Of a DNA stretch of 64,000 bases, positions 19,347-20,175 are shown one piece after another. The DNA lies in contig OZ024742.1 of assembly GCA_964016885.1 (NCBI GenBank), positions 298,592,001-298,656,000 on the forward strand, given 5' to 3'. Within the stretch, counting starts at the first letter, position 1. Every line of letters begins with the position of its first letter. The translations under genes were made by a program, and so were the position numbers. The notes below the pieces were generated by a model, which saw only the letters and a list, made by a program, of their open reading frames with translations, was not told the origin of the DNA and did not search any database. The DNA is from Eledone cirrhosa (lineage: Eukaryota).

Positions 19347-20175
19347 TACAAGTTAATATAAATTAATATATATGATAAACACTAATACAATCATATAAGT
19401 GTTTGTATTGTAAATGACCAAGTTAGCTAGAATCGAGACAGGCAAACTGTATTAATATAATTAGTATTTTTCAACCTAGCTAACTTGATCATTTACAATA
19501 CAAACACTTATATGATTGTATTAGTGTTTATCATATATATTAATTTATATTAACTTGTATTTCACGGCTCAGAAATATTTATTTCTTTGAGCTATTTAAT
19601 TGTAAAAGACTGTTTGAGTTTATAACTCTATATTTATAGTATTACGGCTCCTTTTGTTGAGCTAATTTTAGTCCCATAAAAACGGCTGTTATTTCTAGCA
19701 GCACGAGTATGCGGTAGCTAGACACTGAAAAACCATGTGCGTCGATCAGTCTTCTTAAATATTTTGAGGTGAAACATACCAATTTTCTGGGTACTTGCTG
19801 ATGAGAACTGAAGATGATATTTTTTCACTTTTTCAATTATCGAAACTTATTTGGATTTTGAAGTTTAAACTTATCTACGGAACGGGTTTGGATTTTGAAA
19901 TTTAAATTTGTCCAAGTACCACGGCTATTGCCAATATGGGTTTGTTTTTATTGATTTATTATTTTAAATCGAGACAGGCAAACTGTATTAATAGAATTAA
20001 TATTTTTCAATCTAGCTAACTTGGTCATTTACAATACGAACACTTATATGATTGTATTAGTGTTTATCATATATATTAATTTATATTAACTTGTATTTCA
20101 CGGCTCAGAAATTCTTTCTTTGAGCTATTTAATTGTAAAAGACTGTTTGAGTTTATAACTCTATATTTATAGTAT
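19347..20175 (+). mobile_element. Non-coding retrozyme-like element (~1.4 monomers of 536 nt) with inverted 5' arm
   Basis: Direct repeats 19431-19642 / 19967-20175; inverted arm 19347-19430 against 19476-19559; HHR in the unique part; (TA)n flanks; no ORF. Confidence 0.8.
19790..19920 (+). ncRNA. Type I hammerhead ribozyme with long stem III
   Basis: ggtacttg CTGATGA [imperfect stem II] GAAAC tt [24-bp helix 19849-19872 / 19884-19907] tt GTC caagtacc; perfect 8-bp stem I. Confidence 0.85.

Follow-up and report, generated by a model that had tools for sequence, protein, structure and literature searches.

Within a 64,000-nucleotide stretch of the Eledone cirrhosa genome (contig OZ024742.1; hereafter the window, with positions counted from its first letter), we identify one of hundreds of dispersed copies of a non-coding tandem family. 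The element appears to work like a non-autonomous Penelope-like element (PLE) and, by its sequence features, falls within the non-LTR retrozymes. On balance we consider it probable that it is such a retrozyme and that a Penelope-type enzyme, acting in trans, copies it from two internal starts on one RNA, which is probably circular. The initial annotation of this DNA had proposed a cephalopod retrozyme candidate, and its anatomy, tandem copies, cut-site read-through and PLE-style inverted arm are all recovered here, while the variable permutation that it envisaged is not. The use of PLEs by retrozymes has so far been argued from co-occurrence and from the phylogeny of PLE pseudo-LTRs (pLTRs), whereas here the insertion ends themselves carry a PLE footprint.

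The window copy is composed of two inverted arms bordered by (TA)n at both outer ends, with a left target flank at 19327..19345, read from the sequence, and a right one at 20176..20267. Its direct repeats (19431-19642 and 19967-20175; 212 and 209 nt) recur with a period of 536 and share 95.8% identity over 212 columns. They are 6 substitutions and one 3-nt indel apart, a divergence in line with mutation after insertion. Numbering the unit 1-536 from window position 19431, we delimit by ORF content and composition a single non-coding unit (19431..19966, + strand) with a GC content of 29.7%, and the longest ATG-initiated ORF of the tandem unit measures 34 aa. The long arm (19431..20175, + strand) was delimited by repeat and end mapping; it spans 745 nt, or 1.39 units, is truncated at its 5' side, and its outer end is the long (L) end site. 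The short arm (19346..19430, - strand), delimited by self-comparison and end mapping, repeats unit positions 46-130 in inverted orientation at 99% identity, and its outer end is the short (S) end site. A single type I hammerhead ribozyme (HHR) is predicted from motif, fold and covariation at 19790..19920 on the + strand, with its predicted cut at 19912/19913. These results agree with the ~210-bp repeats, single HHR, lack of an ORF, (TA)n flanks and ~1.4 turns read earlier from the letters alone; the inverted arm is likewise present, although it measures 85-86 nt where 84 had been given.

A search of the 3.0-Gb assembly with the unit returned 4197 first-look candidates, which is not a copy number, and 40 of them were scored. 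A 24-mer spanning the cut site has 239 exact genome matches against 0 for its reversed control, so the family is not a product of chance. Its members, at least some of which contain two complete HHRs, repeat a unit several hundred bp long head to tail; they are non-coding, below 50% GC and free of LTR architecture as judged from ORF length and composition. The family is also present in the contigs of three sequencing runs whose type is unrecorded, all from one sample. Tandem multimers, which the initial annotation had suggested looking for elsewhere in the genome, do exist and bear out the non-coding 536-nt unit: the longest array among the matches listed reaches ~4 units (L136), and in 14 of 54 insertions a single arm contains 2-3 complete ribozymes. 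No long array appeared in the best 40 candidates of a search with a 2.7-unit query. The dispersed, two-armed, fixed-end anatomy would rule out a Helitron or a satellite origin.

For the analysis of ends we assembled 74 distinct insertions, a sample that leans to long, young and high-identity copies. It comprises a set of 54, from which 16 loci re-showing counted insertions and 4 segmental-duplication twins had been removed, and 20 added later (8 from the 2.7-unit query and 12 from 24-mer matches, the latter chosen blind to their ends). Of the 134 arms, 61 have their end at S (unit positions 114-133, mostly 130) and another 61 at L (197-214, mostly 212), which places 122 arm ends in two intervals totalling 38 of 536 positions; the other 12 arms are fragments with different end points. 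In the window the S site lies at 19560 and recurs at 20096, the L site lies at 19642 and recurs at 20175 (both on the + strand, both ending in GTAT), and they bound a tail of 82 nt. A TA-type repeat follows 114 of the 122 S and L ends. The 3' ends are thus fixed at two sites and only the 5' ends vary, scattered across the unit, so that the apparent permutation is 5' truncation and random permutation of ends is ruled out. The two sites, our putative first (S) and second (L) RT starts, probably reflect priming by a PLE RT/endonuclease on both cut strands within (TA)n.

The pairing of the two ends is equally regular. We observe 46 S+L combinations among 52 two-armed insertions, together with no L+L, two S+S and four in which one end is unclassifiable; of the S+S cases, L061 is ambiguous and L052 involves two subfamilies, and L034 was scored as S+L across a SINE insertion. 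At the 12 blind-picked loci the pairing is S+L in 11 and unclassifiable in one. This agrees with the PLE-style inverted arm of the initial annotation, and the two fixed points suggest simultaneous copying of one RNA from each of them by a Penelope-type enzyme. The family as a whole carries a PLE-type insertion footprint, namely, two 3' ends bounding a tail, the tail on one of two inverted arms, and variable 5' truncation. Arm-arm junctions consist of short overlaps or short fills, and 4 of the 46 S+L insertions have near-palindromic junctions (within 10 nt). In 7 of 22 single-armed copies (TA)4 is found on the 5' side; the ends sit inside (TA)n, which blurs target-site duplications. Finally, 10 of 122 5' ends fall near the S site at positions 122-135 (L007, L013, L022, L023, L034, L038, L053, L137, L141, and L142), in three cases after very nearly one full turn. 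This cluster is a lead only and is not significant (nominal p 0.006, but p 0.52 counting the choice of interval).

A short sequence module, GGCTC..GAGC, follows each end site within ~6 nt. It is duplicated in the unit and kept in sister families of otherwise different unit sequence. The first module (19566..19593, + strand), just 3' of the S site, is a predicted hairpin, and the second (19646..19697, + strand) reads GGCTC..GAGCT, is joined to the motif GGCTRYTATTTYTA and is common to sister families. The end-site hairpins are invariant and thus offer no covariation, the region folds with a z of -1.2, and we regard the hairpin as a prediction only. The pattern of the second module has 783 exact genome matches, compared with 0 for its control. 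At each of 30 loci fetched, the module is followed by a hammerhead-type region and by non-coding sequence (L175 being deleted there), with no element ORF downstream in these 30. In a module profile search, matches were family members plus one weak stretch at chance level.

Each unit carries a predicted type I hammerhead with a stable helix III, as judged from sequence and fold. In the window, stem I is formed by 19790-19797 and 19913-19920, CUGAUGA starts at 19798, GAAA at 19842, and the GUC places C17 at 19912. The 139-nt region folds with a z of -5.2 on the + strand and -1.3 on the - strand. An Rfam search of the window at gathering thresholds gave 0 matches, which the length of stems II and III would probably explain. 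A 37-nt duplication has made stem III a G-U-rich hairpin of ~28 bp; at L022:2394-2496, L042:1673-1774 and L052 one 37-nt repeat is gone, and stem III is shorter, as it is in sister families. Helix III is long or CAG/CTG-closed in this and the sister families, in which the minimal palindromic form of PLE pLTRs was not found. Minimal hammerheads of that palindromic, pLTR type are abundant in the flanks of family copies (L003, L011, L017, L034, L047, L110, L116, and others).

Stem I shows double changes at 8 of 8 pairs, and all 87 cells are paired across 11 sequences from four families, compared with 30-40% in slid controls; these sequences are related, hence the figure is not a probability. Within the family, N7 is the sole core position varying in more than 3 loci, and the difference between core and other positions (0/11 versus 97/525) is not significant (p 0.23). 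Four sister loci, of which two belong to a single array, have TTGATAA instead, where both members of the C3-G8 pair have changed to give U3-A8. The stem I covariation and the core pattern suggest that the predicted ribozyme is kept by selection. In the predicted fold of the 536-nt circle (z of -4.3 on the + and -2.8 on the - strand, 40 shuffles) the ribozyme supplies much of the signal and is open, with CUGAUGA paired into stem II. The window copy has a single ribozyme and so would be unable itself to yield a monomer. For comparison, 8 of 9 predicted Xenopus elements are without self-cleavage.

We next consider which template was copied. None of 100 segments (53 loci) crossing the predicted cut site has an indel there, against a background of 8% per 12 nt that is not independent, and 1 of 122 5' ends falls at 476-490 where 3.4 are expected. 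The read-through implied by the initial annotation is recovered, and intact crossings together with the scarcity of 5' ends indicate a continuous template, either a circle or an uncleaved multimer. An origin from a single unit is favored by the diagnostic subfamily alleles, for which direct units are concordant in 505 of 561 comparisons and arms in 369 of 510, compared with 19.5% between loci; the values are 96% for units and 94% for arms when the compound loci L009, L012, L029 and L052 are set aside. Successive turns point the same way: they differ at 353 of 16,877 sites (2.1%; between-locus median 6.6%), and their differences do not recur in the same polarity (same 17, opposite 25). Against such an origin, 106 of 162 segments have a counterpart at some other locus that is at least as similar as their best same-locus partner, so homogeneity within loci is not above that of sister loci. 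Locus-private alleles common to several units number just 28 of 272. Young uniform masters or gene conversion would mimic a single-unit signal. In addition, the S and L arms of L012:398-2155 come from different subfamilies, and the tandem at L009:1371-2667 has a middle unit of another subfamily with two compensatory stem I changes. At least some events hence used two templates or underwent later conversion; in L009 both stem I strands around the cut belong to one subfamily, so the switch lies elsewhere.

The same PLE-type two-site priming acting on an uncleaved linear multimer of a tandem locus, with the hammerhead trimming ends or traveling as a passenger, would give equally clean read-through. 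This alternative also draws on the anole PLE, for which PMC11167929 describes the HHR as dispensable for insertion in vitro and uncleaved RNA as the main substrate, and on the copies with several complete ribozymes per arm and the one ~4-unit array mentioned above. We nonetheless find it unlikely, although it is the rival of greatest weight: arrays copied this way would shrink each generation, yet several subfamilies own multi-unit copies uniform for their own alleles, turn-to-turn differences are not inherited, and no long master occurs among the matches listed. Linear HHR-cleaved monomers joined into tandems by end-to-end template jumps could also make uniform units, and the insertion L056, which begins at the cut site, as well as the subfamily mixture in L009 can be read in this way. 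The unbroken junction crossings, the near absence of 5' ends at the cut and the position of the L009 switch away from it all speak against such jumps, which we judge very improbable.

Lower still, and already largely refuted, stands the proposal that the repeats are pseudo-LTRs of a coding PLE or that the inverted arm arose by self-primed fold-back. Coding PLEs do share the tail, the inverted arm and the (TA)n target, self-priming has been proposed for inverted pLTRs (PMC3846280), and the near-palindromic junctions are what a fold-back predicts. However, 42 of 46 junctions are not palindromic, a fold-back leaves the arm ending at the other site unaccounted for, the unit repeats head to tail without an ORF, and its stem III is stable as opposed to the minimal palindromic ones of flanking PLE pLTRs. 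The pseudo-LTR case had been named in the initial annotation as the one that would overturn it; tblastn of PLE proteins over the family loci found no element-linked PLE ORF (the 20 later loci were assessed by layout only), and 0 of the 30 module matches lead into one. No RT-GIY-YIG ORF was found between or upstream of the repeats in the family loci searched. A PLE-like ORF remnant upstream of L056 was judged unrelated to the element, which lies ~470 nt past the end of the broken frame.

The genome does contain a young coding PLE family, with 40,781 candidates, 92-96% alike among 126 scored, and frames of up to 995 aa. Its 3' ends are of two kinds, separated by 60 nt and bordered by (TA)n, and inverted copies mostly have one of each. 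The best named relative of a coding PLE from this genome is an Octopus vulgaris protein (68%). A Cx4CxxC linker before the GIY-YIG domain suggests Neptune type, an assignment by motif (as described in PMC8557442) and not by tree. Blastn finds no similarity between this family and the 536-nt unit beyond low complexity, which rules it out as a parent; the machinery thus exists in the genome, with no partner role implied. A 3' sequence common to an autonomous partner was sought against this family and the flanking PLE pieces, and none was found.

Returning to the retrozyme copied by a Penelope-type enzyme, we propose the following course. A source locus with two ribozymes would be transcribed, and the transcript would cleave itself into the 536-nt monomer, which would then be ligated into a circle. 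A PLE RT/endonuclease supplied in trans would bind both GGCTC..GAGC modules, and copying would be primed at S from one target DNA end and at L from the other. The enzyme would proceed round the circle, displacing strands as it goes; the S and L arms overlap in sequence, so displacement is needed if both are made on one RNA. Where copying stops would vary, and microhomology or short fills would then link the 5' ends of the two cDNAs. With its 85-nt S arm and 745-nt L arm, the window copy may be one such product. One RNA with two modules would account for the unlike ends, where two free RNAs would require a further asymmetry. More tentatively, and with less than even confidence, the duplicated hairpin module may dock one PLE dimer on a single circular ribozyme RNA and set off two strand-displacing rolling-circle reactions, one per target DNA end. 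If so, the short-plus-long rule could explain in general why Penelope elements of every kind have inverted pLTRs and tails. The module could then act as a cis signal transferable between RNAs: a whole radiation of octopus circular RNAs would carry it, and it would serve to write any RNA circle into (TA)n.

Mobilization of retrozyme circles by PLEs has been proposed (PMC7229834), and retrozymes have been tied to pLTRs by distribution and tree in bioRxiv 10.64898/2026.07.22.740005, with no mollusc in the sampling described in the portions drawn on here. Like the metazoan non-LTR retrozymes in these two sources (coral, mussel, and axolotl in the former, vertebrates in the latter), the family consists of non-coding AT-rich tandems with one type I HHR and a stable helix III, and shares with them the proposed PLE mobilization and multi-unit cDNA from circles. 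The 536-nt unit compares with 170-400 in invertebrates and a vertebrate consensus of up to 972 (PMC7229834; bioRxiv 10.64898/2026.07.22.740005). The family departs from those retrozymes in its arrays, which are short and dispersed, in having two-armed insertions with two fixed 3' ends, and in a stem III of ~28 bp, features known here from sequence. It also has a conserved module at its ends, whereas the repeats of retrozymes, as characterized in the relevant part of PMC7761336, hold no conserved motif naming a partner. Our searches of the open-access literature, supplements excluded, brought up no paper that treats retrozymes of cephalopods or the ends of retrozyme insertions.

The family resembles endonuclease-positive (EN+) PLEs (Poseidon-Ac, PMC11167929; Adineta, PMC3846280; Neptune/Naiad, PMC8557442) in the two internal RT starts that bound a tail, the tail on one inverted repeat, 5' truncation, partial tandems, AT-rich or (TA)n targets, and an HHR upstream of the starts. 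PLEs carry an optional 30-40-bp tail on one of their inverted pLTRs (PMC3846280, PMC8557442), and the anole PLE protein, which cleaves both DNA strands of AT-rich targets and extends them, initiates RT internally at the two sites that bound this tail (PMC11167929). In contrast to EN+ PLEs as these sources describe them, our family has no ORF, a tail of 82 nt versus 30-40, and a full instead of a minimal palindromic helix III; its unit is also without sequence similarity to the coding family examined here. Non-autonomous Chlamys PLEs such as MRC1 are likewise non-coding, pLTR-forming and multicopy head to tail, but occur in green algae, generally resemble an autonomous family at the 3' end, and are mostly without HHRs in the account of PMC8557442. 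The footprint supplies exact putative start sites and a candidate recognition module, and thereby a small defined substrate: a 536-nt circle or dimer, two start positions and a (TA)n target. Such a substrate bears on two questions, namely, circles as a transposition template and the origin of PLE inverted repeats and tails.

Other elements were observed along the way. At 20803-21996 in the window, two pLTR arms of the young coding PLE are arranged as a fold-back. This fold-back contains a hammerhead of its own, one of its ends is short and the other long, and its ORF is limited to a C-terminal scrap. Copies of this abundant Neptune-like PLE also lie at 51155-52967 and at L095:2037-5481. Other PLE families with a C-terminal GIY-YIG occupy 35150-37060, an inverted pair with a hammerhead in its pLTR, and 49078-50070; we take both to be of the "Hydra-like" kind. 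Fragments at 60433-60810 and 14860-15459 (both - strand) presumably resemble, by their motifs, a Tc1/mariner transposase and the C-terminus of an RTE-type RT.

Sister families sharing the layout form a radiation. Several are represented among L156-L185, with the hammerhead core variants TTGATAA (U3-A8), CAGAAGA and ATGATGA at several loci each. L122, L126, L128, L129, L131, L132, L133 and L160 represent the sister family of L023:570-900. Repeated targeting or co-mobilization may lie behind the many copies of that family (the L122-L160 loci) in which the short-end site, TTAATATTATAAT, is occupied by an antisense element of variable length, presumably a tRNA-type SINE.
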